Source: a virus
Taxonomy: Duplodnaviria > Heunggongvirae > Uroviricota > Caudoviricetes
Strand: one strand, 5' to 3'
Length of the DNA stretch: 13,954 bases
Virus record (IMG/VR): IMGVR_UViG_2778261136_000001
Location: 1-13,954 of that record
Part shown: positions 1-13,954 of the stretch, piece after piece
How the letters are laid out: every line of letters starts with the position of its first letter
Numbering within the stretch: position 1 is the first letter of the stretch
Translations under genes and position numbers: made by a program
Notes under the pieces: generated by a model
Databases searched by the model: none
What the model was told of the DNA's origin: nothing
Seen by the model: the letters and a program-made list of their open reading frames with translations, nothing else

Positions 1-141
1 CAGTTGCTGGACAGGGTTTCCCCGTCTCAGTGGGCGGCAATAGGCGTGCTGGGGAGTCTGCTGTTTGGTCTGCTGACGTACCTGACGAACCTGTATTTCA
101 AAATCAGAGAGGACCGGCGTAAGGCGGCGCGGGGAGAGTAA
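1..141 (+). CDS. S: Holin, C-terminal fragment (phage 21 S21 pinholin-like); 5' end lies outside the window
   Basis: Frame 1 is open from base 1 to TAA at 139-141. It translates to ...[40 protein letters not shown]: a hydrophobic transmembrane stretch followed by a charged C-terminal tail. From memory this closely matches the C-terminus of the phage 21 pinholin. It sits 4 nt upstream of the endolysin start. Confidence 0.7.
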
Positions 142-145
142 GCTG

Positions 146-679
146 ATGAGCCGGAAATTCCGCTATGGTTTATCAGCTGTCGTTCTGGCGCTGATTGCCG
201 CAGGGGCTTCTGCGCCTGAAATCCTCGACCAGTTTCTTGACGAAAAAGAAGGTAACCACACTACGGCATACCGTGATGGTGCGGGTATCTGGACCATCTG
301 CCGTGGAGCCACCCGGGTGGATGGTAAGCCTGTTATTCCTAGCATGAAGCTGTCGAAGGGGAAATGCGACCAGGTTAACGCCATTGAGCGTGATAAGGCG
401 CTGGCATGGGTGGCGAAAAACATCAAAGTGCCACTGACTGAACCCCAGAAAGCGGGTATTGCGTCATTCTGTCCTTACAACATTGGCCCGGGTAAGTGTT
501 TCAGCTCAACGTTTTACCGGAAACTGAACGCCGGAGACCGTAAAGGCGCATGTGCTGAAATTCGTCGCTGGATATATGACGGTGGTCAGGACTGCCGTAT
601 TCGTTCAAACAACTGTTACGGTCAGGTATCCCGTCGTGACCAGGAGAGCGCGCTGGCGTGCTGGGGTATCGACAGGTAG
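146..679 (+). CDS. R: SAR endolysin (T4-type lysozyme / muramidase, phage 21 R-like)
   Basis: 177-aa ORF with SD GGGGAGAG at 131-138. N-terminus MSRKFRYGLSAVVLALIAAGASAPE is a weakly hydrophobic Gly/Ala-rich signal-anchor-release segment. It is followed by the lysozyme catalytic arrangement E...(8)...D...(5)...T in ...KEGNHTTAYRDGAGIWTICRG. Position immediately after a holin gene. Confidence 0.9.
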   Translation: MSRKFRYGLSAVVLALIAAGASAPEILDQFLDEKEGNHTTAYRDGAGIWTICRGATRVDGKPVIPSMKLSKGKCDQVNAIERDKALAWVAKNIKVPLTEPQKAGIASFCPYNIGPGKCFSSTFYRKLNAGDRKGACAEIRRWIYDGGQDCRIRSNNCYGQVSRRDQESALACWGIDR

Positions 680-814
680 CAGAATATTTTGCTGAAAAAT
701 GACGCTTGCTCACGCGGGCTGATAACACGAAATCCTGCGAACTGGCAAAATGCAAGTGAATAAAGTCAGGAAGATTGTTTCACGCAGAGGCACCGTAATG
801 GTGTCTTTGTCATT

Positions 815-952
815 TCTGCGCTTCGCACAAGCGTAAATAAACCAAAGAACCTTTCAGGATGAGCCCTGGTGGATAACCGGCAGTGGTCTGGTTAACCCTC
901 TTTGGGCTGGTTATTCCTGTGCGCAGGGTTCATCACTAAAAGGAAATAACCG
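815..952 (+). promoter_or_regulatory. Conserved 5' leader element, copy 1 (paralog of 2185..2318), upstream of the antirepressor-like gene
   Basis: Shares with copy 2 a GC hairpin (819-833, CGCTT-CGCAC-AAGCG), a 5' box AGAACCTTTCAGGATGA (846-862), a 3' box GGTTCATCACTAAAAGG (927-943) containing the SD, and the same 9-nt SD-to-ATG spacing with ATGAAT start context. The ~65-nt core between the boxes diverges. Confidence 0.6.
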
Positions 953-1522
953 ATGAATATGATGACCGTGCCGTTTCACGGCGATTCTCTTTATGTGGTT
1001 AACCATAACGGTGAGCCATACGTTCCCATGAAACCTGTCGTTGCGGGGATGGGGCTGGCCTGGCAATCACAGTTGGCTAAGTTAAGACAGCGTTTTGTGT
1101 CAACTATAACGGAAATCGTTATGGTTGCTGAGGATGGGAAACGACGCAATATGGTGTCCCTGCCACTTCGAAAACTTGCAGGCTGGTTACAAACCATCAA
1201 TCCCAACAAAGTAAAACCCGAAATCCGCGACAAGGTAATCCAGTATCAGGAAGAGTGCGACGATGTTCTCTATGAATACTGGACGAAGGGTTTTGTCGTT
1301 AATCCTCGTCAAATGAGCGTGATGGAAGAACTCAATCAGGCCTGCGCTGACATGAAACGGGATAAAAACATTGCCAGTGTGTTTTCTACCGGGCTGAATG
1401 AGTGGAAACAGGTTAAAGCCGCGCATGTATCAAAAATCCGCACATTGATAAACGAAGCGAATCTGCTGATTGATTTTGTCCTGGCTGATACAGGCAAAGG
1501 GAAAATAACAAAGGCGGATTGA
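953..1522 (+). CDS. Antirepressor-like phage regulatory protein (moron inserted between R and Rz)
   Basis: 189-aa ORF with SD AAAAGG 9 nt upstream. N-terminal region MNMMTVPFHGDSLYVVNHNGEPYVPMKPVVAGMGLAWQSQLAKL... resembles, from memory, the N-terminal domain family of P22-type antirepressors found in enterobacterial prophages. The function is not established from sequence alone. Confidence 0.55.
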   Translation: MNMMTVPFHGDSLYVVNHNGEPYVPMKPVVAGMGLAWQSQLAKLRQRFVSTITEIVMVAEDGKRRNMVSLPLRKLAGWLQTINPNKVKPEIRDKVIQYQEECDDVLYEYWTKGFVVNPRQMSVMEELNQACADMKRDKNIASVFSTGLNEWKQVKAAHVSKIRTLINEANLLIDFVLADTGKGKITKAD

Positions 1523-1536
1523 TGGAGTGGTGGCTA

Positions 1537-1671
1537 ATGATATCGGATAAACTCATAACGCTGGCGAAGATTCTCTGTGTAATCGTCGGCATTTCATTTT
1601 TAGTCATGCTGGTTGCCATTTTCTTTTCCACCGCCTGGAGAGTCCTGACGTTATCGGGACTGGTGGGGTGA
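1537..1671 (+). CDS. Small hydrophobic protein (44 aa, predicted single transmembrane helix); not in the supplied ORF track
   Basis: ATG at 1537 with GGAG at 1524-1527, TGA at 1669-1671. Translation MISDKLITLAKILCVIVGISFLVMLVAIFFSTAWRVLTLSGLVG is almost entirely one hydrophobic helix. It fills the gap between the ant-like gene and Rz with no wasted sequence. Coding status is unproven. Confidence 0.35.
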   Translation: MISDKLITLAKILCVIVGISFLVMLVAIFFSTAWRVLTLSGLVG

Positions 1672-1678
1672 AAGAGAG

Positions 1679-2116
1679 ATGAACCGTGTTCTGTGTGTGG
1701 TGATTATTGTCCTGGCGGTTGGCTGTGGTGCGCTGTGGCTGGCAACAAACCATTACCGTGACAACGCGCTCACCTACAAAGCGCAGCGCGATAAAGCCAC
1801 ATCCATCATCGCAGATATGCAGAAGCGGCAACGTGATGTAGCAGAACTTGACGCCAGATACACAAAGGAGCTTGCTGATGCTAATGCGACTATCGAAAGT
1901 CTCCGTGCTGATGTTTCTGCTGGGCGTAAGCGCCTGCAAGTCGCCGCCACCTGTGCAAAGTCAACGACCGGAGCCAGCAGCATGGGCGATGGAGAAAGCC
2001 CAGGACTTACAGCAGATGCTGAACTCAATTATTACCGTCTCAGAAGTGGAATCGACAAGATAACCGCGCAGGTTAACTACCTGCAGGAATACATCAGGAC
2101 GCAATGCCTGAAATAA
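1679..2116 (+). CDS. Rz: Rz inner-membrane spanin (i-spanin)
   Basis: 145-aa ORF with N-terminal TM segment and the motif ATNHYRDNALTYKAQRDK...DARYTKELADA...DVSAGRKRL, which closely parallels lambda Rz (VNHYRDNAITYKAQRDK...AKYTKELADA...DVAAGRRRL) as I recall it. Coiled-coil periplasmic domain. It contains the embedded Rz1 frame. Confidence 0.9.
   Translation: MNRVLCVVIIVLAVGCGALWLATNHYRDNALTYKAQRDKATSIIADMQKRQRDVAELDARYTKELADANATIESLRADVSAGRKRLQVAATCAKSTTGASSMGDGESPGLTADAELNYYRLRSGIDKITAQVNYLQEYIRTQCLK
1878..2063 (+). CDS. Rz1: Rz1 outer-membrane lipoprotein spanin (o-spanin), embedded in the +1 frame of Rz
   Basis: Perfect SD AAGGAG at 1865-1870, 7 nt before ATG 1878. N-terminus MLMRLSKVSVLMFLLGVSAC is a signal peptide ending in a lipobox (VSAC), followed by the Pro-rich mature region KSPPPVQSQRPEP. 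It lies entirely inside Rz in a different frame. The track ORF 1848..2063 is the same frame with an upstream start. Confidence 0.8.
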   Translation: MLMRLSKVSVLMFLLGVSACKSPPPVQSQRPEPAAWAMEKAQDLQQMLNSIITVSEVESTR

Positions 2117-2148
2117 TTTTTTTGCAAATCACAAAGTCCATTTAATGA

Positions 2149-2172
2149 GCCCCGCGATGCGGGGCTTTTTTA
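2149..2172 (+). terminator. Rho-independent terminator after Rz/Rz1
   Basis: Perfect 7-bp GC stem GCCCCGC (2149-2155) / GCGGGGC (2159-2165) with a short loop, followed by TTTTTTAT. Confidence 0.7.
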
Positions 2173-2184
2173 TGTACGCAGTAA

Positions 2185-2318
2185 ACGCGCTTCACACGCG
2201 CGACTTATGAACACAGAACCTTTCAGGATGACCCTTGAGGATGCCGGTTTGGTGATCGGTGCCTTTCTGTGGGCCGGAATCCTGTGTGACAAGGTTCATC
2301 ACTAAAAGGTGTGCACTG
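2185..2318 (+). promoter_or_regulatory. Conserved 5' leader element, copy 2 (paralog of 815..952), upstream of the Rha-family gene
   Basis: Hairpin CGCGC-TTCACAC-GCGCG at 2186-2202, 5' box AGAACCTTTCAGGATGA at 2215-2231, 3' box GGTTCATCACTAAAAGG at 2293-2309, then 9 nt to ATGAAT at 2319. It begins about 13 nt after the Rz terminator. Confidence 0.6.
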
Positions 2319-2861
2319 ATGAATTATCCAACTATCGTTAACGGCATCGATTTTCGAGATCTGATTTTTGTGGCAAACAACGATCCGGTTACAGATTCTT
2401 TTATGGTGGCAAAAGCATTTGGAAAGCTGCCGAAGAACGTAGTTCGTGACATTGAACGAACCATAGAAGCTTGCCCTCCTGAGTTTGATACAAAGCTCAA
2501 CTTTGAGCTTTGCTATAAAAACAATGAGTTACAGAATGGTAAGCCGCAAAAATTCTACCGTCTCCGCAAGGATGGGTTGATGCTTTTGGTTATGTCCTAC
2601 ACCAAAAAAGAAGCAATGCGTATCAAAATTGCTTACATCAACGCATTTAACTGGATGTACGCCATGCTTCAGGTTGGTCATCGTCAATTTGAAGAAGAGA
2701 GAAATGCCGTAATGCTGGAGTACATGAAAGAGAAGGATGTTGCCAGCATGTCAGGTCGCCTGCTAAATCGCTGGGGCAAAATTAAGAAGCCACAGCTGCT
2801 GGCTAGAATTGAACGCCTTGAACAGCACGGGCAAACCGTAATCCCCGGACTCATCAATTAA
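2319..2861 (+). CDS. Rha-family phage regulatory protein
   Basis: The track ORF 2259..2861 starts at GTG and reads through the leader. The likely true start is ATG 2319 (MNYPTIVNG...) with SD AAAAGG at 2304-2309. The region ...NDPVTDSFMVAKAFGKLPKNVVRDIERTIE...KFYRLRKDGLMLLVMSYTKKEAMRIKIAYINAFNWM matches my memory of the Rha regulatory protein family (HTH-like N-terminal domain). Confidence 0.7.
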   Translation: MNYPTIVNGIDFRDLIFVANNDPVTDSFMVAKAFGKLPKNVVRDIERTIEACPPEFDTKLNFELCYKNNELQNGKPQKFYRLRKDGLMLLVMSYTKKEAMRIKIAYINAFNWMYAMLQVGHRQFEEERNAVMLEYMKEKDVASMSGRLLNRWGKIKKPQLLARIERLEQHGQTVIPGLIN

Positions 2862-3019
2862 CGGCAGTACCGCGAAACAACCCAAGCCAGAAAGTGGGGA
2901 AATAACACTGGCAGCCACTGAAAGATGAACCTCCTGCCTTATGGCAAAAAAGATTCTTTGTGGTGGCGGACTGATGGAAAGACATCCTAATCAAGCAACC
3001 ACTCCACAGGGTCATAATT

Positions 3020-3400
3020 ATGAACGACCAGCAAATCGAAAAAGAAATCGTTGAGAAAGGCAAAACGGCACCGCGAATCACCCAGCAGCACATCGAAGAC
3101 GTGATTAAAAGCGAGCATTACTTTACTGCTTATGATGGACGAAATGGTGCCATTTCCAGCAACGAATATTGTGGCAGGGAAAAACCAGAAGAAGGAGATC
3201 GTGATTTATCACCATTGAAGTTGCTCACTTTCTGCGTACTGGTGCTGAAGAATGGCTTCACTGTCACCGGAGAGAGTGCCTGTGCAAGCCCGGAAAACTT
3301 TGATGCAGAAATTGGTCGGAAGATTGCCCGGCAGAATGCTGTAAACAAAATCTGGATGCTCGAAGGTTACTTGCTGAAGCAGAAGCTAAGCGAACAGTAG
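3020..3400 (+). CDS. Small conserved phage protein of unknown function (resembles the family I recall as N4 gp49 / Sf6 gp66-like)
   Basis: 126-aa ORF. The C-terminal part LTFCVLVLKNGFTVTGESACASPENFDAEIGRKIARQNAVNKIWMLEGYLLKQ matches my recollection of a widespread small phage protein family often found near terminase genes. The start codon has a weak SD, so the exact start is uncertain. Confidence 0.5.
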   Translation: MNDQQIEKEIVEKGKTAPRITQQHIEDVIKSEHYFTAYDGRNGAISSNEYCGREKPEEGDRDLSPLKLLTFCVLVLKNGFTVTGESACASPENFDAEIGRKIARQNAVNKIWMLEGYLLKQKLSEQ

Positions 3401-3799
3401 TTATTACAAAAGCCATTCCCTACAGAGTGGCTTTGATAATGGCTTATACCCTACACGGGATAACTTAATTGATATCCTTTTTAACGGATAAAGGCATTTC
3501 AGCCTGACATAGCCATGCGCCGCATCGTCGCCGTATTCCCGCATTAACAGAGACCGCAGCCACCTTATCTGCGTGAGTGTGCGGGGATAATCAAAAACGA
3601 TGCACACCGGGTTTTCTCATTTTTCACGAGATGGGAGCGATTTCCCGCGAAGCCGCCTGTCCGGTGCGGTGGTGGAAGAAACCGGATAAAACAACCGCAT
3701 TGTGCAAATATCGATCAAATATGGTGCTGCTGTGTGAAATCTGAAAAATCACAGCGGTCATTATGCATCAGTTTTTAACACAGGACGTCAGAACGTGAC

Positions 3800-4606
3800 A
3801 TGGCAAAGCTGGACTGGAAAAAGCTGGAGCAGGCATTCCGACGCGAACATGCCGAAACGGGAATAACATTACTGGACTGGTGCCGGAAGAAAAAGATTAA
3901 TTACAACACCGCCAGAACCCGTATAAAAATGGGCAAAATCGATCATGAAATTGATCATAAAACCGATCATGAAATCGATCATGACATCTTAGATGAAGAA
4001 CCCTGCAATGACGCGGGTTCCGGCGATGAAAAATGCGCAAAAAACTCTGAAAAAAACTGCGCAAATTCGGCAGAAACGAAACGGATTCGTGGTTCCCGAC
4101 TTTTACCTCCTTCAAACGCTTTTTCTCAGCGCAACACCCACGCCGTAAGACACCGTGGATATGCGAAGTATCTTGAGGCAGATAACCTCATGGATGATGC
4201 TTCCGACATGGTGCTGTTCGATGAACTGGTGTTCACCCGGGCCCGCGCACTTTCAGTAACTAAGGCACTTAAAGGGATGTTCGCCGACCTGGAAGAGGCA
4301 ACTGACGTGGAAACCCGTGTTGCTCTTTACGACAAAATACTCAAAGCTGAACAGGCCCTTGACCGGAATATTGCCCGTATCGAGTCAATTGAACGCTCAT
4401 TGCTGACGCTGGACGTCCTGGCTGAGACAGCACCAAAACTTCGTGCTGACCGGGAAAGAATCAACGCCGCCAGAGATAAACTCAGAGCTGAAACCGATAT
4501 TCTGACCAGCCAGCGTCGGGGCGTTGTTACGCCTGTCAGTGACATCGTGTCATCGCTGCATGAAATGAGTAATTCGGGGAGACTGGATGACATTCCGGAA
4601 GAATGA
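3800..4606 (+). CDS. terS: Terminase small subunit (putative)
   Basis: 268-aa ORF immediately upstream of, and overlapping by 20 nt, the large terminase gene. The N-terminus (KLEQAFRREHAETGITLLDWCRKKKINYNTARTRIKMGK) looks like a helix-turn-helix DNA-binding region, and the C-terminal half is predicted coiled-coil/oligomerisation. It contains an internal GATC-bearing tandem repeat. Assignment is by position and architecture. Confidence 0.65.
   Translation: MAKLDWKKLEQAFRREHAETGITLLDWCRKKKINYNTARTRIKMGKIDHEIDHKTDHEIDHDILDEEPCNDAGSGDEKCAKNSEKNCANSAETKRIRGSRLLPPSNAFSQRNTHAVRHRGYAKYLEADNLMDDASDMVLFDELVFTRARALSVTKALKGMFADLEEATDVETRVALYDKILKAEQALDRNIARIESIERSLLTLDVLAETAPKLRADRERINAARDKLRAETDILTSQRRGVVTPVSDIVSSLHEMSNSGRLDDIPEE
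3938..3985 (+). repeat. Four tandem 12-bp repeats (ATCGATCATGAA-like), each carrying a GATC, inside terS
   Basis: Units ATCGATCATGAA / ATTGATCATAAA / ACCGATCATGAA / ATCGATCATGAC encode IDHE-IDHK-TDHE-IDHD. GATC occurs at 3941, 3953, 3965 and 3977, exactly 12 bp apart. Confidence 0.9.
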
Positions 4607-6293
4607 ACCGCGATGTGATGAGCCGTCAGAAATGACCGAGGCTGAACAACGTCTGTTCATCATGACTAAACTGAGCAATCCCTGGTGGCGGCTCAATCAT
4701 CTCTACAAAATACAGAACGAAAAAGGTGAACTGGTCACCTTCAGAATGCGACCGGCGCAGCGCCAGTTATTCCGGAGCATGCACAATAAAAATATTATCC
4801 TGAAAGCGCGCCAGCTGGGATTTTCCACAGCCATTGATATTTATCTTCTCGACCAGGCATTATTCATTCCGCATCTCAAATGCGGGATCGTCGCTCAGGA
4901 TAAACAGGCTGCCAGTGAAATTTTCCGCACAAAAATTGCTGTACCGTTTGATCATCTCCCTGACTGGCTGAGAGCCTCATTCACCATCGTTGAACGTCGT
5001 AGCGGTGCCAGCGGTGGCTATATCCTGTTTGGTCACGGCTCGAGTATCCAGGTGGCAACCTCATTCCGTTCAGGTACGGTGCAGCGCCTGCATATCTCAG
5101 AGCACGGCAAAATTTGCGCGAAATATCCGGCTAAGGCGAAAGAACTGCGAACCGGTACGCTTAATGCCGTCTCTGATGAATGCATTATTTTTGATGAGTC
5201 CACAGCTGAAGGCGTGGGTGGTGATTTTTACGAGATGAGTAACCGAGCACAGGAGATCACTGCATCAGGCTTATCGTTGACGGCACAGGATTATAAATTC
5301 CATTTTTACGCCTGGTGGCAGGATCCTAAATACAGCGCCCGAGTGCCGGAAAGCGGGCTGAAGCTGTCACGGGAAAAAATGACGTATTTTTCTGCGGTTG
5401 AGAAGGCAATGAACATCACGCTTACTGATGAACAGAAGCAGTGGTACATCAATAAGGAAACTGAACAGCGTGAGGAAATGAAGCAGGAGTTTCCCTCAAC
5501 GCCACAGGAGGCGTTTCTGACGTCCGGACGACGTGTGTTCAGTGCCGAAAGTACGTTGCAGGCAGAATCATTCTGTTCGCCACCGCTGATTGTTTATGAC
5601 ATTGAACCTGTTACAGGAAGGAAGACTAAAGCGCAGTCTCTGCGTGACGGGAATAAAGCCGAACAGCTCCGGACGCTGATGAATTATCTGCTGGTCTGGG
5701 AGCTACCGGATCCAGATGAAGAGTATGTCTGCGGAGCGGATATTGCTGAGGGGCTTGAGCACGGGGACCGCTCATCGCTGGATATCATCAGATGCAGTAA
5801 TGGTGAGCAGGTGGCCCACTGGTTTGGTCATCTTGATGCGGAGCTTTTTGCTCATCTCATTGCGCAGGTCTGTCGTATGTACAACAACGCGTTTGTGGGG
5901 CCGGAGCGTAACAATCACGGACATGCCGTTATTCTGAAACTCAGGGAGCTCTATCCGACGCGTTATATCTACAACGAACAGCACCTTGATCAGGCATATG
6001 ATGACGATACGCCCCGCCTTGGCTGGCTGACAACCCGTCAGAGCAAACCTGTTCTGACCGAAGGAATGAAAACGCTCCTGAATAATGGAATATCAGGGAT
6101 CCGCTGGTCAGGCACATTATCGGAAATGAACACCTACGTTTATGACGCGAAAGGCTCCATGAATGCACAGGAAGGCTGTTTTGATGATCAACTCATGAGC
6201 TACATGATTGCCCAGGAGATGCGCGCCAGAATGCCTGTGAGGGTAAAACAGAAAACGGATAAACGCAGAACTACACACTGGATGGCTCACTGA
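4587..6293 (+). CDS. terL: Terminase large subunit
   Basis: 568-aa ORF with SD GGGAGA at 4574-4579. The N-terminal ATPase region carries a deviant Walker A-like KARQLGFST, and the acidic C-terminal half fits a nuclease domain. It is followed by the portal gene with an ATGA stop/start overlap. An alternative start at ATG 4632 is possible. Confidence 0.85.
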   Translation: MTFRKNEPRCDEPSEMTEAEQRLFIMTKLSNPWWRLNHLYKIQNEKGELVTFRMRPAQRQLFRSMHNKNIILKARQLGFSTAIDIYLLDQALFIPHLKCGIVAQDKQAASEIFRTKIAVPFDHLPDWLRASFTIVERRSGASGGYILFGHGSSIQVATSFRSGTVQRLHISEHGKICAKYPAKAKELRTGTLNAVSDECIIFDESTAEGVGGDFYEMSNRAQEITASGLSLTAQDYKFHFYAWWQDPKYSARVPESGLKLSREKMTYFSAVEKAMNITLTDEQKQWYINKETEQREEMKQEFPSTPQEAFLTSGRRVFSAESTLQAESFCSPPLIVYDIEPVTGRKTKAQSLRDGNKAEQLRTLMNYLLVWELPDPDEEYVCGADIAEGLEHGDRSSLDIIRCSNGEQVAHWFGHLDAELFAHLIAQVCRMYNNAFVGPERNNHGHAVILKLRELYPTRYIYNEQHLDQAYDDDTPRLGWLTTRQSKPVLTEGMKTLLNNGISGIRWSGTLSEMNTYVYDAKGSMNAQEGCFDDQLMSYMIAQEMRARMPVRVKQKTDKRRTTHWMAH

Positions 6294-8437
6294 TGAAAAA
6301 TGAAACTAACACCATGGCGACGAAAAACGACAATGGAGCCACGCCGCGTTTTTCTCAGCGCCAGTTACAGGCGCTTTGTTCTGATATTGACAGCCAGCCT
6401 AAATGGCGTGATGCCGCAAACAAGGCCTGTGCGTATTACGATGGCGATCAGTTGCCACCGGAAGTTCTTCAGGTACTGAAAGATCGCGGTCAGCCGATGA
6501 CTATCCATAACCTCATCGCGCCTACCGTCGATGGCGTTCTGGGAATGGAGGCCAAAACACGGACTGATCTGGTGGTGATGTCAGACGAGCCAGATGATGA
6601 AACTGAAAAACTGGCTGAAGCTATTAATGCTGAATTTGCCGATGCATGCCGCCTTGGCAATATGAATAAAGCCCGCTCTGATGCCTATGCGGAACAAATC
6701 AAGGCGGGCCTCAGTTGGGTGGAGGTCAGACGAAACAGCGATCCGTTCGGGCCTGAATTTAAGGTGTCTACTGTCAGCCGGAATGAGGTTTTCTGGGACT
6801 GGCTGAGCCGGGAGGCTGATTTAAGTGACTGCCGCTGGCTGATGCGTCGCCGCTGGATGGATACCGATGAGGCAAAAGCTACATTCCCGGGAATGGCTCA
6901 GGTTATCGATTATGCCATTGATGACTGGCGTGGTTTTGTCGATAGCACGGTTACTGAAGGCCAGCCCAGTCCGTTGATGAGTGCATGGGAAGAGTATCAG
7001 TCATGGGATCGACAGCAGAACGAATGGCTTCAGCGTGAACGCCGTCGTGTGCTGCTTCAGGTGGTTTATTACCGTACATTCGAGCGTCTTCCGGTGATTG
7101 AACTCAGTAATGGACGGGTGGTGGCCTTTGATAAAAATAATCTGATGCAGGCGGTAGCTGTGGCATCCGGGCGGGTTCAGGTGAAAGTCGGGCGGGTAAG
7201 CCGTATTCGTGAAGCCTGGTTTGTCGGGCCACACTTTATTGTGGATCGCCCCTGTAGTGCTCCGCAGGGGATGTTTCCGCTGGTTCCTTTCTGGGGATAC
7301 CGAAAGGATAAAACCGGGGAGCCATACGGGCTAATTTCCCGCGCCATTCCGGCACAGGATGAGGTGAATTTTCGTCGTATCAAGCTGACCTGGTTGCTTC
7401 AGGCCAAACGCGTGATTATGGACGAGGATGCCACCCAGTTGTCAGACAACGACCTGATGGAGCAGATCGAACGTCCGGATGGCATTATTAAACTGAATCC
7501 GGTCCGAAAAAATCAGAAAAGTGTCGCAGATGTTTTTCGGGTTGAGCAGGATTTTCAGGTTGCCAGCCAGCAGTTTCAGGTCATGCAGGAATCGGAAAAA
7601 CTTATCCAGGATACCATGGGAGTGTATTCCGCATTTCTCGGGCAGGAGTCAGGTGCGACGTCAGGCGTGGCTATCAGTAACCTGGTGGAGCAGGGGGCCA
7701 CAACCCTTGCGGAAATCAACGATAACTACCAGTTTGCCTGCCAGCAGGTGGGAAGACTGTTGCTGGCTTATCTTCTCGATGACCTGAAAAAACGCCGTAA
7801 TCATGCAGTAGTGATTAATCGCGATGATCGTCAGCGTCGCCAGACCATTGTCCTCAATGCTGAAGGTGATAATGGTGAACTGACCAATGATATTTCAAGG
7901 TTAAATACACATATTGCGCTGGCTCCTGTTCAGCAGACACCTGCGTTTAAGGCACAGCTTGCACAGAGAATGTCAGAGGTTATTCAGGGGCTGCCGCCTC
8001 AGGTGCAGGCTGTTGTGCTCGACCTGTGGGTTAATCTTCTGGATGTGCCGCAGAAACAGGAGTTTGTTGAGCGTATTCGTGCTGCGCTGGGGACGCCAAA
8101 ATCACCGGATGAAATGACGCCGGAAGAACAGGAAGTAGCGGCACAACAACAGGCACTTCAGCAACAACAGGCAGAACTCCAGATGCGCGAGATGGCTGGC
8201 AGAGTGGCAAAACTGGAAGCTGACGCCGCCAGGGCTCATGCTGCTGCACAACGGGATAATGCCAGTGCACAGCGGGAAGTTGCCCTGACACAGGGGCAGC
8301 GTTATGTGGATGCGCTTAACCAGGCACATACGGCAGAAATCATTACCGGCATACAGAATATGGAACAGGAGCAGGACGTTCTTCAGCAACAGATGCTGTA
8401 TACGTTACAACAGCGGATGAATGAAATGTCGCTCTGA
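6293..8437 (+). CDS. Portal protein, with a Gln-rich C-terminal coiled-coil extension
   Basis: 714-aa ORF directly after terL (TGATGA overlap). The size and the long C-terminal helical Gln/Ala-rich tail (...AAQQQALQQQQAELQMREMAGRVAKLEADAARAHAAAQ...) are reminiscent of P22-type portals with a C-terminal barrel. Assignment is by position, size and composition. Confidence 0.8.
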   Translation: MKNETNTMATKNDNGATPRFSQRQLQALCSDIDSQPKWRDAANKACAYYDGDQLPPEVLQVLKDRGQPMTIHNLIAPTVDGVLGMEAKTRTDLVVMSDEPDDETEKLAEAINAEFADACRLGNMNKARSDAYAEQIKAGLSWVEVRRNSDPFGPEFKVSTVSRNEVFWDWLSREADLSDCRWLMRRRWMDTDEAKATFPGMAQVIDYAIDDWRGFVDSTVTEGQPSPLMSAWEEYQSWDRQQNEWLQRERRRVLLQVVYYRTFERLPVIELSNGRVVAFDKNNLMQAVAVASGRVQVKVGRVSRIREAWFVGPHFIVDRPCSAPQGMFPLVPFWGYRKDKTGEPYGLISRAIPAQDEVNFRRIKLTWLLQAKRVIMDEDATQLSDNDLMEQIERPDGIIKLNPVRKNQKSVADVFRVEQDFQVASQQFQVMQESEKLIQDTMGVYSAFLGQESGATSGVAISNLVEQGATTLAEINDNYQFACQQVGRLLLAYLLDDLKKRRNHAVVINRDDRQRRQTIVLNAEGDNGELTNDISRLNTHIALAPVQQTPAFKAQLAQRMSEVIQGLPPQVQAVVLDLWVNLLDVPQKQEFVERIRAALGTPKSPDEMTPEEQEVAAQQQALQQQQAELQMREMAGRVAKLEADAARAHAAAQRDNASAQREVALTQGQRYVDALNQAHTAEIITGIQNMEQEQDVLQQQMLYTLQQRMNEMSL

Positions 8438-8455
8438 AAACTCTGGCTTCAACTG

Positions 8456-8482
8456 AACCCCGTCATCGTACGGGGTTTTTTG
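8456..8482 (+). terminator. Rho-independent terminator after the portal gene
   Basis: Stem AACCCCGT (8456-8463) / ACGGGGTT (8470-8477), loop CATCGT, followed by a T-run (TTTTTTGTTT). Confidence 0.65.
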
Positions 8483-8594
8483 TTTCCGGAGGTAAGCGTT
8501 CCGGGAGCGGTGCGCTTATTCGCGGGGGCAGCGATAAGCCTTATTTACTCAACCATTCGGATCTGTCCGATAAACAGACCATGCGGAGTTATTT

Positions 8595-9602
8595 ATGGAT
8601 TTTGAATTTACGGGTGAAGAAACCCCGGAACAACTGGAAAAAATGCTGGAAGGACTTGGGGATGTGGATATTGACAGTCACGCACAGGACGTCGTGACGG
8701 AAGATACCACGGAAAAAAATGCGGATGAGGAAGCACAGACTCAGACGGGCGATAACAATGTGGCACCGACGCCGGATGCCAGTGTGGAGCAGACGCAGGA
8801 CGTGAAGGAGCCGGAAGTGAAGGGGGTGCTCACCCGCGACGGTAAACACGTCATTCCCTATGAAGTCCTTGAGGCTGAACGTTCCGGTAAGCAACGGGCC
8901 GAACAGGAAGCCGCACTTCTTCGTGGGCAGATAGCTGAAGAAAAACGCAGGGTGGAACTGCTGACGTCTCAGATCCACCAGGCCGGTATGAAGCCCACAC
9001 CGTTACCGGAAAACGAAAAAATTTCTGATGAGCAGATTGCCCGTATCAGGGAGATGTATCCGGAAATTGGTGACGCGGTGGCTTCGCTCATCCGTAAAAA
9101 TAACTATCTCCAGTCCCGTGTTCAGCAATCAACACAGCAGGCAGAAGGTAATGGTGGTGAGGATTTATCACCGGTTCTTGATGCGATGAATGCCGTGCCG
9201 GTGCTGAAAACGTGGCAGGAGTCCGATCCGGATCGCTTCTCGGTTGCTGTATCCATCGACGGGAAGCTCCAGAATGACCCCGCATGGAAAGACAAAACGC
9301 TCACTGAACGTTTCGCTGAAGTGGCCCGTCGTACGCAGGTTGCTTTCGGTGAAGTCAGTGAGTCGTCTGCTGACAACCAGGCAGACAAAACGGATATCCG
9401 GAAAACGGCGGAAGAGAAAGTGAAGACCGCTGAACGGGAGCAGGCAGTACCAGCTTCCCCGTCAGATTTAGGCACCACGGCCTCCGTCGGAACCGGTGAT
9501 AATTTTGAACGGTTACTTGGCGCTTCTCATTCAGAGGCAGAGGCGATTATGCGTGGTATGACGAATGCTGAAATAGACGCGCTTCTGGAGAAGCTCGGGT
9601 AA
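8595..9602 (+). CDS. Scaffolding protein (putative)
   Basis: 335-aa ORF between portal and capsid genes. It is highly acidic and low-complexity at the N-terminus (DVDIDSHAQDVVTEDTTEKNADEEAQTQTGDNN), with a charged, predicted helical middle and C-terminus. Assignment is by position and composition only. Confidence 0.55.
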   Translation: MDFEFTGEETPEQLEKMLEGLGDVDIDSHAQDVVTEDTTEKNADEEAQTQTGDNNVAPTPDASVEQTQDVKEPEVKGVLTRDGKHVIPYEVLEAERSGKQRAEQEAALLRGQIAEEKRRVELLTSQIHQAGMKPTPLPENEKISDEQIARIREMYPEIGDAVASLIRKNNYLQSRVQQSTQQAEGNGGEDLSPVLDAMNAVPVLKTWQESDPDRFSVAVSIDGKLQNDPAWKDKTLTERFAEVARRTQVAFGEVSESSADNQADKTDIRKTAEEKVKTAEREQAVPASPSDLGTTASVGTGDNFERLLGASHSEAEAIMRGMTNAEIDALLEKLG

Positions 9603-9625
9603 CTTACTGAAGGAGTACTGAAGTA

Positions 9626-10840
9626 ATGACGACTGTAACATCAGCCCAGGCGAATAAGCTGTATCAGGTGGCGCTTTTTACCGCTGCCAATCGCAACCGC
9701 TCGATGGTCAATATCCTCACTGAACAGCAGGAAGCGCCAAAAGCAGTTTCGCCGGACAAGAAAAGCACAAAGCAGACCAGCGCGGGTGCGCCGGTTGTCC
9801 GTATCACAGACCTTAACAAACAGGCCGGTGATGAAGTGGCGTTCAGCATCATGCATAAACTCTCAAAGCGTCCGACGATGGGAGATGAGCGTGTTGAAGG
9901 TCGTGGTGAAGACCTTAGCCATGCTGATTTTTCCCTGAAAATTAATCAGGGCCGTCACCTGGTGGATGCGGGCGGACGCATGAGCCAGCAGCGTACGAAG
10001 TTCAACCTGGCATCCTCTGCCAGAACGCTTCTGGGGACGTACTTTAATGACCTGCAGGACCAGTGTGCGATAGTGCATCTTGCTGGAGCTCGCGGTGATT
10101 TTGTTGCTGACGACACTATTCTGCCGACAGCGGAGCACCCTGAATTCAAAAAAATCATGATCAACGATGTACTGCCTCCGACACATGACCGTCACTTTTT
10201 TGGCGGTGATGCGACAAGCTTTGAGCAGATCGAAGCGGCAGATATTTTTTCTATTGGCCTGGTGGACAATCTCTCCCTGTTCATTGACGAAATGGCGCAT
10301 CCGTTACAGCCGGTTCGTCTGTCCGGTGATGAACTTCACGGAGAAGATCCATATTACGTCCTGTACGTCACGCCGCGTCAGTGGAATGACTGGTACACCT
10401 CGACTTCCGGGAAGGACTGGAACCAGATGATGGTTCGTGCCGTGAACCGTGCAAAAGGTTTTAACCATCCGCTGTTCAAAGGTGAATGTGCGATGTGGCG
10501 GAATATCCTGGTTCGTAAGTATGCGGGTATGCCGATCCGTTTCTATCAGGGTTCAAAGGTTCTGGTATCAGAGAATAACCTGACGGCAACAACGAAAGAG
10601 GTCGCTGCTGCAACCAATATTGACCGCGCCATGTTACTGGGGGCTCAGGCGCTGGCAAATGCTTACGGTCAGAAGGCAGGCGGTCACTTCAACATGGTTG
10701 AGAAGAAAACGGATATGGATAACCGTACTGAGATAGCAATCAGCTGGATCAACGGTCTGAAAAAAATCCGTTTCCCCGAGAAGAGCGGCAAGATGCAGGA
10801 TCACGGCGTGATTGCCGTTGATACCGCAGTGAAGCTCTGA
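9626..10840 (+). CDS. Major capsid (coat) protein (putative)
   Basis: 404-aa ORF with strong SD AAGGAG at 9610-9615, immediately after the scaffold gene and followed by a strong terminator, as expected for a highly expressed coat gene. The family is not recognised from memory; assignment is positional. Confidence 0.6.
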   Translation: MTTVTSAQANKLYQVALFTAANRNRSMVNILTEQQEAPKAVSPDKKSTKQTSAGAPVVRITDLNKQAGDEVAFSIMHKLSKRPTMGDERVEGRGEDLSHADFSLKINQGRHLVDAGGRMSQQRTKFNLASSARTLLGTYFNDLQDQCAIVHLAGARGDFVADDTILPTAEHPEFKKIMINDVLPPTHDRHFFGGDATSFEQIEAADIFSIGLVDNLSLFIDEMAHPLQPVRLSGDELHGEDPYYVLYVTPRQWNDWYTSTSGKDWNQMMVRAVNRAKGFNHPLFKGECAMWRNILVRKYAGMPIRFYQGSKVLVSENNLTATTKEVAAATNIDRAMLLGAQALANAYGQKAGGHFNMVEKKTDMDNRTEIAISWINGLKKIRFPEKSGKMQDHGVIAVDTAVKL

Positions 10841-10856
10841 TTTTTCCTTTCCCCAT

Positions 10857-10880
10857 GCCGGGTTTTCGCCCGGCTTTTTC
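10857..10880 (+). terminator. Rho-independent terminator after the putative coat gene
   Basis: Stem GCCGGG (10857-10862) / CCCGGC (10869-10874), loop TTTTCG, then TTTTT. Confidence 0.65.
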
Positions 10881-10894
10881 TGGAGTCATTAATT

Positions 10895-11284
10895 ATGGCA
10901 AAGACTATTCTTGCCCCGTCACTGAGTGAACGGGTCTATACGGGCACGCACGGTAATGAGTCGGTGGCAGAAGGCGTATTTACGGTGAATGCTGCGGAAG
11001 CGGACAGTGTTATTCATCTTCTCTCACTGCCAGTTGGCATCCGTATCAACTCACTCCAGCTGGTTTCAACGGGCGGTCTGGGTACTGCAACCGTCAGCAT
11101 TAAGTCTGGTGAGCATGTTCTCATCGATAACAGCGAAGCTGTTTCTGCAAAATTTGCCAGATATGTGCCAGTGGAGCCGTACACCACACAGCGTGACGGA
11201 GAGCTGGTTACTGTCACCATTAAGACTGCCGCTGCAACCGGCACCCTGAATGTTCTGCTGCGTTATACCGTGGTGGGATACTGA
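10895..11284 (+). CDS. Small beta-rich virion-associated protein (possible head decoration/accessory protein)
   Basis: 129-aa ORF with GGAG 9 nt upstream. Gly/Thr/Val-rich composition consistent with a beta-sandwich. Located directly after the coat gene and bracketed by terminators. Function inferred from position only. Confidence 0.45.
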   Translation: MAKTILAPSLSERVYTGTHGNESVAEGVFTVNAAEADSVIHLLSLPVGIRINSLQLVSTGGLGTATVSIKSGEHVLIDNSEAVSAKFARYVPVEPYTTQRDGELVTVTIKTAAATGTLNVLLRYTVVGY

Positions 11285-11297
11285 TTAAAACCTTCCG

Positions 11298-11320
11298 GCC
11301 CGCGTTATGCGGGCTTTTTA
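11298..11320 (+). terminator. Rho-independent terminator after the small capsid-associated gene
   Basis: Stem GCCCGC (11298-11303) / GCGGGC (11309-11314), loop GTTAT, then TTTTTA. Confidence 0.65.
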
Positions 11321-11334
11321 TCCGGGGAATTTAT

Positions 11335-11796
11335 ATGAGCGAGAAAATTGCCGTTGTCTATATCGGCCCAAAACCCGTGAAAAAGGACACCATTACCGGA
11401 AGTCGCACGCTGTTCCCACGTCTTGAGCCGGTGCATGTTGACAGCGCGATGGCCTGGCAACTGCTGGGGTTTCCGGATGTCTGGGTTCGTCATGAAGAGC
11501 TTGATGATGTTCTGAAAAAGCAACAACAGAATGAGCAGTTGCGGCAGGCACAGCAGGCGCAGGAAAGAGTGCTTGCTGCGCTGGCAGAAGCGGAGAACAG
11601 TTTTGTTGTTTCTGTTAACGGGCAGGAGGTGGATTTAAGTAAGCTCACCTCAGCACGGCTGGCGACGCTGTGTGAGGCAGAAGAGCTGGATATTCACAAA
11701 GACCCGAAAGAAACGGCTGAGGCATTCCGTATCCGGGTGCGTGAGGCATTTCGCCGTCGTGTTGCGGAGACTGAACAGCATGGCGGAACTGAGTGA
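11335..11796 (+). CDS. Hypothetical virion morphogenesis protein (possible head completion/adaptor)
   Basis: 153-aa ORF with coding-like composition. Its stop overlaps the next gene's start by 17 nt. No family recognised. Confidence 0.55.
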   Translation: MSEKIAVVYIGPKPVKKDTITGSRTLFPRLEPVHVDSAMAWQLLGFPDVWVRHEELDDVLKKQQQNEQLRQAQQAQERVLAALAEAENSFVVSVNGQEVDLSKLTSARLATLCEAEELDIHKDPKETAEAFRIRVREAFRRRVAETEQHGGTE

Positions 11797-12343
11797 TTTT
11801 TTACCATATGTCCGTCGTCATATCAGCGGTCCACTGAACATTATGATGACGGATGCTCTGTCAATGGCTGCCGTGGCATTCAGCCGCCAGTCGTTGGTGT
11901 GCCGTCGGGAGGTTACTGTTGTACCGGTGGCAGGAAAAGAAATCGTGCTTCCGTATGACAAAGATGATGAGGAGTGCGTTCATATCATCCGTATCTCTGA
12001 CGATAATCATGAGCTTTTTGTCGGTCGGGATGTGGATATCAGCTCCGGACGCTCCCTGCGATTTGCCTGTTCTCCCGGTGAGGTGAGCGTGCTTTATGCC
12101 GTCGCTCCGAAAGCTGGACGCAGCCAGATACCGGATGAACTCCTCACATGGCCTGAAGAAGTGGCTGCGGGGGCACTTGAGCGGTTGTTCATGCAGACTG
12201 GTGTTTCATGGTCAGACCCGTCGCGCGCACAGTATTTTTCTGTGCAGTTTTCTGAGGGGATCCGTCGGGCATATCGTCATACATTGGCGACAAGCCCGTA
12301 CTCTTCATACCGCAACCCTGTACGCAGGCAGAGGTTTTACTGA
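11780..12343 (+). CDS. Hypothetical virion morphogenesis protein
   Basis: The track ORF 11672..12343 has an Arg-rich N-terminal extension that overlaps the previous gene and looks non-coding. The likely start is ATG 11780 (MAELSDFLPYVRRH...). Its stop overlaps the next start (TGATG at 12341-12345). Confidence 0.55.
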   Translation: MAELSDFLPYVRRHISGPLNIMMTDALSMAAVAFSRQSLVCRREVTVVPVAGKEIVLPYDKDDEECVHIIRISDDNHELFVGRDVDISSGRSLRFACSPGEVSVLYAVAPKAGRSQIPDELLTWPEEVAAGALERLFMQTGVSWSDPSRAQYFSVQFSEGIRRAYRHTLATSPYSSYRNPVRRQRFY

Positions 12344-12993
12344 TGACGACGATTACAGAAATCATCGGACGTGTGAATACACAACTGGTTGACCCGATGA
12401 TGGTTCGCTGGCCCCTGCAGGAATTGTGCGATTATTACAATGATGCTGTGAGGGCAGTGATTCTGGCGAGACCGGATGCTGGCGCAAGCCTGGAAACAAT
12501 CAGTTGTGTTCCTGGCGCCCGTCAGGTTTTGCCCGATGGTGTAATACAACTTCTTGACGTGATATGCCTCAGTGACGGTAGTGCAGTCAGACCATTATCC
12601 CGGGAGGTGCTGGATGCGCAGTATCCTGAGTGGCCCACAATGAAGGGCATTCCTGAATGTTTTATCAGCAACGACCTGTCCCCGCGCGTATTCTGGCTGT
12701 TTCCTGTCCCTGACAAAGAGATAAGTATTGATGCAGTGGTAAGCCGGATACCGGAGGCAGTGTATGTTCTGACGCAGGACGATGATACGCCAGTTCCACT
12801 GGAAGAGGCTTATGTTAACCCACTGGTGGACTGGATGTTGTTTCGTGCTTTCAGTAAGGATGCTGCCGGTGGTGCAGAATCGGGGCTGGCTGCGCAGCAT
12901 TATCAGAGTTTTGTTGAGCAACTTGGGATCAAACAGGGGGCAGACAGTGCATTGTCTGCCCGTAAAAAAGTGTTTAACGGAGGTGGAGTGTGA
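12343..12993 (+). CDS. Hypothetical virion morphogenesis protein (possible tail/neck component)
   Basis: 216-aa ORF translationally coupled to both neighbours (ATGA overlap upstream, GTGTGA overlap downstream). No family recognised. Confidence 0.6.
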
Positions 12994-13954
12994 GTGTTGT
13001 TGTTTCGGGGACGCTGAAATCTCCTGATGGTGAGGCGATATCAGGAGCAAATATTACCCTGACGGCGCTGACAGTTTCACCGGATGCGCTCAGCGGCACC
13101 AGTGCGTCGGCAGTGACCCGTGAAGGTGGATATTACGGAATGACGATGGATCCGGGGGAGTATGCGGTTTCGGTGACGGTGAAAGGGAAGACAGCTGTCT
13201 ACGGACGTGTGCGTATTGAGGGGACCGAAAGTACGGTGACGCTCAATATGCTGTTACGCCGCAGTCTTGTTGAGGTGAGCATACCCGGAGAGCTGCTGAC
13301 AGATTTCCGGCAGATACAGAATAATGTGGCTGATGACCTTGCCACTATTCGTCGCCTGAATGAAGACACGGCGACAAAAAACACTCAGGCCACACAGTCA
13401 AAAGAAAGTGCAGCAGCCAGTGCGAAGAGTGCATCTGACAGTGCAAAGACGGCAACCAGCAGGGCGGCTGAAGCCGGACAAAAAGCGACTGATGCCACTG
13501 AGGCCGCGACCCGTGCAATCACAGCAGCGGGGAATGCAGAGGAAAGCTCGACCCGTGCCGGAGAGTCTGAAAAAGCCGCCGGAGCTGATGCAGAAAAAGC
13601 CAGACAGCATGCTGAAAAGGCCAGGCTGGCGCAGGAGAGCGCCGGAGAGATCCTTAAGCGGGCAGAGGCTGCCACTGTCAGTGCTGAAGAGGCCAGACGT
13701 ATGGCTGAGAATGCACGGGGGCCCCGGGGGCCTCAGGGAGAAACTGGTCCGAAGGGGGATGTCGGTCCTAAAGGCGAAACAGGTCCAGTGGGCCCTCAAG
13801 GGCCCGCAGGGCCGAAAGGTGAGCGTGGTGACGTTGGTGCTCAGGGGGCTGTAGGGCCCGCTGGTCCGCGTGGTGAGAAGGGCGAACAGGGGGAGCGAGG
13901 ACCGCAGGGAATACCAGGCCTGAAGGGGGATACCGGAGAGCGGGGGCCTAAAGG
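12990..13954 (+). CDS. Side tail fiber protein, N-terminal part (continues past the window end), with collagen-like Gly-X-Y repeats
   Basis: GTG start at 12990 with SD GGAGG at 12979-12983; the frame stays open to the window end. The N-terminus [26 protein letters not shown]...[22 protein letters not shown] parallels the lambda Stf N-terminal domain (MAVKISGVLKDGTGKP...GRYSMDVEYGQYSV) as I recall it. An Ala/Ser/Thr-rich repetitive segment is followed from about 13716 by uninterrupted G-X-Y triplets ([40 protein letters not shown]...). Confidence 0.8.
13716..13954 (+). repeat. Collagen-like Gly-X-Y triplet repeat region within the tail fiber gene
   Basis: About 26 consecutive G-X-Y codon triplets in the tail-fiber frame, extending to the window end. 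Confidence 0.85.

Follow-up and report, generated by a model that had tools for sequence, protein, structure and literature searches.

In the 13,954-nt stretch of phage DNA analysed here (IMG/VR record IMGVR_UViG_2778261136_000001, positions 1 to 13,954; hereafter the window), an Ant-like gene and a rha gene are each preceded by a related leader of ~145 nt. Both leaders share one architecture, in which a terminator-like hairpin is followed by a small 5' hairpin, P1, by a linker and by a rod of ~95 nt that has the Shine-Dalgarno (SD) sequence at its base. On its 3' arm the rod carries a 6-nt bulge, ~95 nt downstream of the P1 loop and 15-20 nt upstream of the SD, whose sequence is complementary to that loop. 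We are nearly certain that this structure and its pseudoknot are real, and from sequence comparison we give a probability of about 60% to the reading that the leader would act as a cis-acting translational lock or insulator for moron genes. Such leaders form a family that is widespread in enterobacterial temperate phages and so far uncatalogued.

Relatives were gathered by BLAST against phage records, two pattern scans of IMG/VR and one pattern scan of a species-representative genome collection, with the scans adding about 300 loci. From 39 diverse leaders, including both window copies, we built a covariance model, R1 (146 positions, 29 base pairs), which comprises P1, the linker and the rod with the SD at its base, directly 5' of the start codon. 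R1 matched the window solely at 807-958 and 2176-2324; because both copies are in the R1 seed, these matches show uniqueness and not independent membership. The parts of the two leaders are listed below, with hairpin P1 taken from minimum free energy (MFE) folds and E-values that are rough owing to a shortened calibration.

807-958, + strand: copy 1, whole leader (R1, 94.3 bits, rough E 4e-22)
789-815, + strand: copy 1, terminator-like hairpin GGCACC GUAAU GGUGUC followed by UUUGUCAUUU (a reading of the sequence; weaker than the strict pattern)
817-835, + strand: copy 1, P1 hairpin, loop CGCAC at 824-828, with A829 as a possible sixth pair
836-845, + strand: copy 1, A/C-rich single-stranded linker
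846-862, + strand: copy 1, 5' box AGAACCUUUCAGGAUGA, with box1 GAACCUU at 847-853 and the anti-SD CCUUU at 850-854
850-943, + strand: copy 1, rod hairpin (helices P2-P6), 850-854 at its base pairing with the SD at 939-943
918-923, + strand: copy 1, 3'-arm bulge UGUGCG, pairing in the pseudoknot with P1 loop 824-829
927-943, + strand: copy 1, 3' box GGUUCAUCACUAAAAGG, with SD AAAGG at 939-943
2176-2324, + strand: copy 2, whole leader (R1, 129.9 bits, rough E 1.7e-31)
2147-2173, + strand: copy 2, strong intrinsic terminator just 3' of Rz, hairpin GAGCCCCGCGAUGCGGGGCUU (2147-2167) plus U-tract
2186-2202, + strand: copy 2, P1 hairpin CGCGC-UUCACAC-GCGCG, loop at 2191-2197
2203-2214, + strand: copy 2, A/C-rich linker
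2215-2231, + strand: copy 2, 5' box, with box1 GAACCUU at 2216-2222 and the anti-SD at 2219-2223
2218-2310, + strand: copy 2, rod hairpin, ACCUUU at its base pairing with AAAGGU
2284-2289, + strand: copy 2, bulge GUGUGA, pseudoknot partner of loop UCACAC at 2192-2197
2293-2309, + strand: copy 2, 3' box, with the SD at 2305-2309

An earlier, sequence-only reading of this DNA had described two related leaders in front of two unrelated proteins. The kinship of the leaders was borne out, with 76% column identity in alignment. The box AGAACCTTTCAGGATGA occurs exactly twice in the window (846-862 and 2215-2231), as does the box GGTTCATCACTAAAAGG (927-943 and 2293-2309), all on the + strand, and dinucleotide shuffles gave 0 box matches even at 2 mismatches. 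The 5' GC hairpin is likewise present in both copies, with loops CGCAC (817-835) and UUCACAC (2186-2202). The SD-to-ATG spacers are of equal length, 9 nt, as claimed, but they are not identical in sequence (AAATAACCG vs TGTGCACTG). The proteins do differ in their N-terminal domains (P22_AR_N vs Phage_pRha), but not entirely at the C terminus, where ORF11CD3 is common to both (26 bits in the Ant-like protein, 91 bits in Rha); this domain pattern looks like domain shuffling behind a shared leader.

The evidence for a folded RNA comes from relatives of these leaders. In a covariance-model alignment of 86 distinct sequences (A6), controlled by 500 column shuffles and by sliding partners 1-3 columns, 96.4% of cells are paired vs 84.1% in shuffles, and both sides change in 28 of the 35 pairs. 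The covariation score of 0.358 vs 0.142 was reached in 0 of the 500 shuffles, and in the slid controls pairing falls to 34-45%. An independent MAFFT alignment, made with no structural model, gives the same picture (94.1% paired). Whole helices swap between types, from GAUGA-CCCUUG/CAAGG-UCAUC in the window to AAGCGAGCCUG/CAGGCUCACUU in phi80 and GAUAUGAG/CUCAUAUC in HK97. The ~65-nt core that had been described as divergent is therefore no unstructured filler but the upper rod hairpin, held together by compensatory changes. Homologous leaders, in short, keep a conserved structure, and the earlier suggestion of a functional cis element in the form of a structured 5' leader is supported at the RNA level. 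On the sense strand G·U pairs outnumber A·C oppositions 181 vs 28, which identifies the folded molecule as sense-strand RNA and speaks against the operator that the same reading had also considered.

At the base of the rod, the 5' box had been suggested to sequester the ribosome binding site, and it does so in both MFE folds, where ACCUUU or CCUUU pairs with the SD AAAGG(U). The helix covaries family-wide: CCUUU:AAAGG pairing is kept in ~97% of cells across the 86 distinct sequences, with compensatory changes, and it persists where the SD-side sequence itself has changed (CACAUAG/CUAUGUG in leader L092). The partition function gives the SD a probability of being unpaired of 0.03 in both window copies. 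P1 and rod together fold at -50.3 kcal/mol in copy 1 (z -3.65) and -45.7 kcal/mol in copy 2 (z -2.06). The start codon, 9 nt 3' of the SD, lies outside the rod and is predicted to be unpaired in copy 1 (AUG 0.96) and largely paired in copy 2.

The most informative feature of the leader is one that the sequence-only reading overlooked, the pairing of the P1 loop with the bulge. In the window the matches are CGCAC(A)/(U)GUGCG for copy 1 and UCACAC/GUGUGA for copy 2. The loops are predicted to be free (probability unpaired 1.00 and 0.99 in copies 1 and 2), the bulge is open in copy 2 (0.99) and only partly so in copy 1 (0.63), and the isolated loop-bulge duplexes are worth -6.0 and -6.4 kcal/mol. 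Loop and bulge nucleotides are unpaired in R1, and their alignment was thus not fitted to the pairing. On A6 the pseudoknot is nonetheless paired in 96% of cells, and both sides change in 5 of its 6 pairs. The central pair is UA in 30 sequences, GC in 26, AU in 18, CG in 8, UG in 2 and unpaired in 1; on the MAFFT alignment the counts are UA 14, GC 12, AU 6, CG 5 and unpaired 0. Loop-bulge pairing has thus been kept through many independent double substitutions, as expected of a long-range pseudoknot.

At least 14 distinct matched loop/bulge alleles occur. Divergent members carry entirely different complementary sequences (CUGACA/UGUCAG, UUCGCG/CGCGAA, ACGCCC/GGGCGU and UCACCC/GGGUGA), and the others are UCACAC/GUGUGA, UCUCAC/GUGAGA, UCGCAC/GUGCGA, CCCAC/GUGGG, UUCCCC/GGGGAA, UUCUCG/CGAGAA, CGCACA/UGUGCG, CCGCA/UGCGG, UGCCC/GGGCA and GCCCA/UGGGC. 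A Watson-Crick match of at least 5 nt between loop and bulge is present in 120 of 129 distinct leaders; for non-cognate partners the mode is 3-4 nt. Rods that are nearly identical in body differ in allele, and rods with unrelated bodies share one, which makes the double substitutions repeated events. The alleles are also independent of the downstream gene family, which argues against an operator for the encoded protein. Where a locus holds several copies, these carry different alleles in 25 of 26 cases (8 of 9 independent arrangements), as do the two leader copies of phi80, and the differences fit avoidance of cross-pairing between copies on one polycistronic RNA.

Allele-like sequences were also seen outside their usual places. 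In ant leaders of Stx phages of the L130 and L199 type, the loop 6-mer UCUCAC recurs in the linker right after P1 (GCGCAUCUCACGCGCAUCUCACAAC), a second potential partner for the bulge. In HK97 (locus L318, 36282) a hairpin loop in the holin gene shows UUCUCG, the same as the P1 loop of the gp73 leader, probably by chance; hairpins elsewhere in HK97, phi80 and the window displayed allele 6-mers only as scattered matches, at the level of chance.

Across the collected loci, phages and prophages alike, R1 finds about 290 copies, all on the gene-sense strand save two weak mirror matches. In the phage records searched by BLAST, variants of the leader precede ant in hundreds of Stx phages, rha in phi80, gp73 in HK97 and sb54 in ST64B; they also precede KilA-N genes, namely in ST104-like phages, in phage 2851 and, inside the tail region, in a Klebsiella phage, and in phage Dewey an HNH gene. 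Among the hosts are Escherichia, Salmonella, Klebsiella, Raoultella, Enterobacter, Serratia, Pantoea, Erwinia, Tatumella, Rosenbergiella, Arsenophonus, Symbiopectobacterium, Shimwellia, Trabulsiella and Chimaeribacter, plus one Cobetia contig. Leaders outside the seed score 72 bits (P22), 80 bits (HK97) and 74.5 bits (second phi80 copy); the phi80 rha leader reaches 128 bits but is in the R1 seed. The two window copies represent sequence types A and D, and type-A-like copies alone are present in 809 of 5426 complete E. coli genomes (median 2, at most 8 copies in one genome). A loose pattern gave 81 matches in the species-representative collection, among them many from unrelated phyla, all of which R1 rejects as chance matches.

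The downstream genes encode KilA-N (102 copies), Rha-ORF11CD3 (93), P22_AR_N Ant (43), HNH_3-AP2 (17) and T5orf172/MUG113 (14) proteins, besides isolated cases of TerB, ANT/KilAC and others; together they represent at least 7 Pfam families. Upstream, a strict hairpin plus T-run ends 7-22 nt 5' of P1 in 117 of 126 distinct contexts. For either window copy, a consensus scan predicted no sigma-70-like promoter upstream. The linker between P1 and the rod measures 9-17 nt and consists of 46% A, 29% C, 19% U and 6% G, in a leader with ~25% of each base, a composition that would be expected of a strand staying single and spanning a helix.

Two reference genomes hold further details. In phi80 (L319) a second, shorter leader with the allele UCGCAC/GUGCGA lies at 45230-45357, directly 5' of PHI80_66 and near cos; it has no obvious upstream terminator and is overlapped by the annotated minus-strand open reading frame (ORF) PHI80_65. 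In P22 record AB362338 (L321, 926-1531), the annotated start of rha (ORF201), at locus 926, falls inside the leader; judging from the SD and the family alignment, the true start is the ATG at locus 996-998.

A search of the literature found no description of the leader as a family and one prior trace only, a small RNA of P22. According to the published text consulted, P22F is an 89-nt RNA defined from read coverage that ends 6 nt upstream of the AUG of rha and has 'no known function' (PMC13397905; Noncoding RNA 2026;12:21); that text mentions no structure, family, P1 hairpin or pseudoknot. P22F belongs to the present family. R1 scores the rha leader of P22 (L321:848-1000) at 72 bits, and P22F (L321:901-989) corresponds to its rod, from the 5' strand of P3 to just past the SD. 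The P22 leader has the P1 loop ACCGCA and the bulge UGCGG, and the window copies are of other types and alleles. Since P22F accumulates during infection, the P22 leader must be transcribed and its rod stable in infected cells.

Read as a lock, the leader would combine with its terminator into a portable cassette that serves moron genes of the Rha, Ant, KilA-N, HNH-AP2 and T5orf172 type. It would be transcribed within the Q-antiterminated late transcript, which would read through the upstream terminator, and the rod would hold translation of a regulator potentially harmful to phage or host low and independent of the upstream context. The loop-bulge pairing might guide or clamp the correct fold, or might help to open the rod as in the IncI case considered below; our confidence in the direction of its effect is low. 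Different alleles on copies sharing one polycistronic RNA could prevent mis-pairing between them.

The rod may also have a second state. The box GARCC (847-851 and 2216-2220), just 5' of the base helix, is complementary to GGYUC on the 3' arm after the bulge, and distinct leaders show GAACC/GGUUC (63), GAGCC/GGCUC (38) or wobble intermediates (18), with 0 A·C among classifiable pairs; in L221, unclassified in that scan, UAACC stands opposite GGCUC by eye. Forcing this helix frees the SD at a cost of +4.7 kcal/mol in copy 2 and +9.6 kcal/mol in copy 1, and a closed/open toggle would be conceivable. We treat this alternative helix, suggested by base complementarity, as a lead and not as a result.

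Several observations weigh against a cis-acting lock, or at least narrow it. The SD helix is short, with 5 bp plus 2 bp past a 1-nt bulge, and copy 1 leaves the AUG free; repression could be mild. Read-through from pR' is itself inferred. Few independent changes underlie the alternative helix, which L221 and the second phi80 copy show weakly or not at all. The source prophages are related and recombining, which means that cell counts overstate independent events, and differing alleles in 8 of 9 arrangements do not clearly exceed the ~75% that allele frequencies would predict. The results fit a pseudoknot acting as clamp, activator or trans address alike. P22F, a processed and stable rod, is explained no less well by a role in trans or in processing.

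A role in trans is unlikely in our estimate. A processed rod RNA carrying the bulge, as P22F does, would bind nascent leaders of matching allele at their P1 loop, or vice versa, and toggle translation in the manner of IsrK or c4 (see below), giving allele-specific cross-talk or insulation between co-resident prophages. The 14 or more discrete matched alleles do resemble specificity classes, copies in one phage almost always differ in allele, a stable rod-sized RNA is present in P22 infection, an E. coli genome can hold up to 8 copies, and loop and bulge are both predicted to be single-stranded and hence accessible. The partners, however, always lie on the same molecule ~95 nt apart, which favours cis pairing kinetically. 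The consensus scan gave no separate promoter or terminator delimiting a small RNA with P1, no extra hairpin consistently presents the allele sequence in HK97, phi80 or the window, and avoidance of misfolding on one polycistronic RNA explains the allele differences equally well. In its fullest form the alleles would be natural orthogonal RNA 'addresses', with processed rods pairing in trans with same-allele P1 loops across resident prophages, switching Ant, Rha or KilA-N translation and coupling or insulating prophage induction. We hold this form to be improbable; if true, trans addresses would amount to an RNA-based specificity layer analogous to immunity groups.

The same P22 RNA bears on a role in RNA processing or stability, to which we also assign a low probability. 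Here the rod would be a substrate of RNase III or RNase E that excises the moron mRNA from the late transcript. Cutting would serve to activate this mRNA, as happens at the lambda N leader, or else to inactivate it by parting SD from AUG, and the pseudoknot would set the geometry. The rod is long and nearly continuous, and the ends of P22F (5' within the 5' arm, 3' lying 6 nt before the rha AUG) suggest endonucleolytic cutting. Those ends, however, derive from read coverage and lack the stagger expected of RNase III cuts, the helices are interrupted every 4-7 bp, and the strictest conservation at the base of the rod falls on the SD pairing, which a pure processing signal would not need.

Less probable still is a sensor, be it a riboswitch, an RNA thermometer or a target of integration host factor (IHF), Hfq or the downstream regulator, in which a signal would open the rod. 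The SD-sequestering architecture with its possible two-state alternative helix would suit such a device, as would the A-rich, G-poor linker, and IHF regulation of rha is stated in secondary sources (PMC4936722). Against this, very few unpaired nucleotides are invariant: conservation sits in the helices and the SD box and the pseudoknot sequence is free, unlike in ligand-binding cores. There is no Rfam riboswitch match, the downstream proteins differ, which makes autoregulation by one protein family unlikely, and inspection of the linker by eye gave no full match to the IHF consensus WATCAANNNNTTR.

A feature at the DNA level, such as inverted-repeat operators, a recombination 'boundary' of mosaic modules or a recent duplication spread by horizontal transfer, would account for the position at module junctions (after Rz, after R, inside the tail region), the high mobility and the many near-identical copies, but is largely refuted by compensatory double substitutions throughout six helices, by tolerance of G·U and avoidance of A·C on one strand only, by the display of the partner sequences in a hairpin loop and a bulge, and by matches that are sense-oriented (save the two mirror matches) and immediately before start codons.

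A leader peptide was considered as well. Copy 2 holds a 25-codon ORF, MTLEDAGLVIGAFLWAGILCDKVHH, which runs from the ATG at 2228 through the rod to the TAA at 2305, ends in the 3' box and has no SD. Elsewhere this frame has 5 codons in copy 1, is missing in phi80 and is out of frame in the L139 type. With the reading frame not conserved, the leader ORF is probably not translated, and we ruled out a leader peptide.

With 99.6% identity to LC727903, the window represents the late region of a lambdoid phage of the Stx1a-converting kind, and its named genes, from the holin to the terminase and head genes, are on the + strand throughout. The genes around the leaders are:

4-141, + strand: holin gene, end portion
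146-679, + strand: lysozyme R
953-1522, + strand: Ant-like gene (P22_AR_N plus weak ORF11CD3), the first gene putatively controlled, start codon 953-955
1519-1671, + strand: small ORF
1679-2116, + strand: Rz
2319-2861, + strand: Rha gene (Phage_pRha plus ORF11CD3), the second gene putatively controlled, start codon 2319-2321
3020-3400, + strand: ORF, with terminase and head genes beyond

The Ant cassette, made up of the terminator-like hairpin, leader, ant and the small ORF at 1519-1671, splits an otherwise contiguous R-Rz unit (680-2116). The consensus scan labels the apical hairpin of the copy 2 rod (2242-2261), with CCUUUCUGUG after it, as 'terminator-like', and in phi80-type leaders UUUUCUGUG follows the upper rod. 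Judged by eye, ~2810-3010 (the Rha 3' end and the intergenic stretch before the ORF at 3020-3400) seems to match P22G, a 204-nt P22 small RNA downstream of ORF201 (PMC13397905). Another small RNA, HnrS, a 66-nt terminated species 'within late genes', was considered as a candidate for the upstream terminator region. The small RNAs EcOnc, AsxR and AgvB of enterohaemorrhagic E. coli were rejected as candidates, being located at the pR' moron site and not at the window leaders, and the literature on Phi24B ant held no information on the leader type of the window.

Taken as a family, these leaders would define a new and abundant RNA class that includes P22, phi80, HK97 and Stx phages, with textbook covariation for a long-range pseudoknot. 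They would open a testable route to the question of how moron regulators of the late operon (Rha, Ant, KilA-N) are restrained, may be relevant to a long-standing, unexplained phenotype of Rha in phi80 and P22 that depends on IHF, and offer a possible function for P22F. With their diversified 5-6-nt loop/bulge pairs they supply a ready set of RNA-RNA interaction modules that may be orthogonal. In Stx phages, one copy lies inside the lysis cassette, beside genes co-expressed with toxin release.

Among known RNAs, the families of Rfam 15 gave no match at gathering thresholds for the window and 7 related loci. At E<=10, positions 650-2400 matched neither c4 nor IsrK, and the chance matches consisted only of asX2, rimP and F6, driven by the upstream terminator hairpin. 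A riboswitch is made unlikely by the same result and by the placement of invariant columns, almost all of which fall in helices or the SD box.

IsrK of Gifsy-1, at orf45-anrP, is a small RNA with its own promoter and terminator that acts in trans on a read-through transcript via a 45-codon upstream ORF (uORF) (PMC4825925). The locus is a functional analogue of the present ones, with a prophage leader 5' of an antirepressor-like gene; there, long-range pairing silences translation, conformers decide the outcome, and pairing with another RNA opens the leader (PMC4825925). Its architecture differs in that IsrK lies after antQ and not behind lysis genes, and that here the terminator is upstream of P1 and no uORF is conserved. 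With the Rfam IsrK model giving no match, we rejected membership.

The sequence-only reading had named a c4-like mechanism as one hypothesis; membership in the c4 antisense family falls with the Rfam result, the c4 models giving no match. In the immI system of P1 and P7, c4 is a processed RNA acting in trans whose loops a' and b' pair over the icd ribosome binding site, leading to Rho-dependent termination before ant. Common ground would lie in antirepressor control through short, allele-specific loop-target pairings that covary between heteroimmune phages, with regulator and target on one transcript. The present leader differs from c4 in having a single loop-bulge pair 15-20 nt upstream of the SD within one leader, and no icd-like ORF. 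As an analogy, the c4-like notion of specific loop-target pairing gains some indirect merit.

By analogy, the closest mechanistic precedent appears to be the rep-leader pseudoknot of IncI-alpha and IncB plasmids. The repZ/repA leaders of IncI-alpha (ColIb-P9), IncB (pMU720) and IncL/M plasmids are reported by Asano & Mizobuchi (1998) and by Wilson, Praszkier & Pittard (1993) to use a pseudoknot as a switch. In these plasmids the target is buried in a stem and exposed by translation of a leader peptide (repY/repB), and an antisense RNA is encoded opposite stem-loop I. The phage leader has a permanently exposed bulge as target and no conserved uORF, and it bears no sequence relationship to the plasmid leaders. 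A consensus scan for an antisense gene opposite P1 gave no promoter-like site or minus-strand terminator, a scan that weak promoters could escape, and the upstream terminator has no U-tract on the minus strand. What the two share is the layout itself: in the phage leader as in the plasmids, the loop of a 5' stem-loop pairs ~100 nt downstream, beside a hairpin that sequesters the ribosome binding site.

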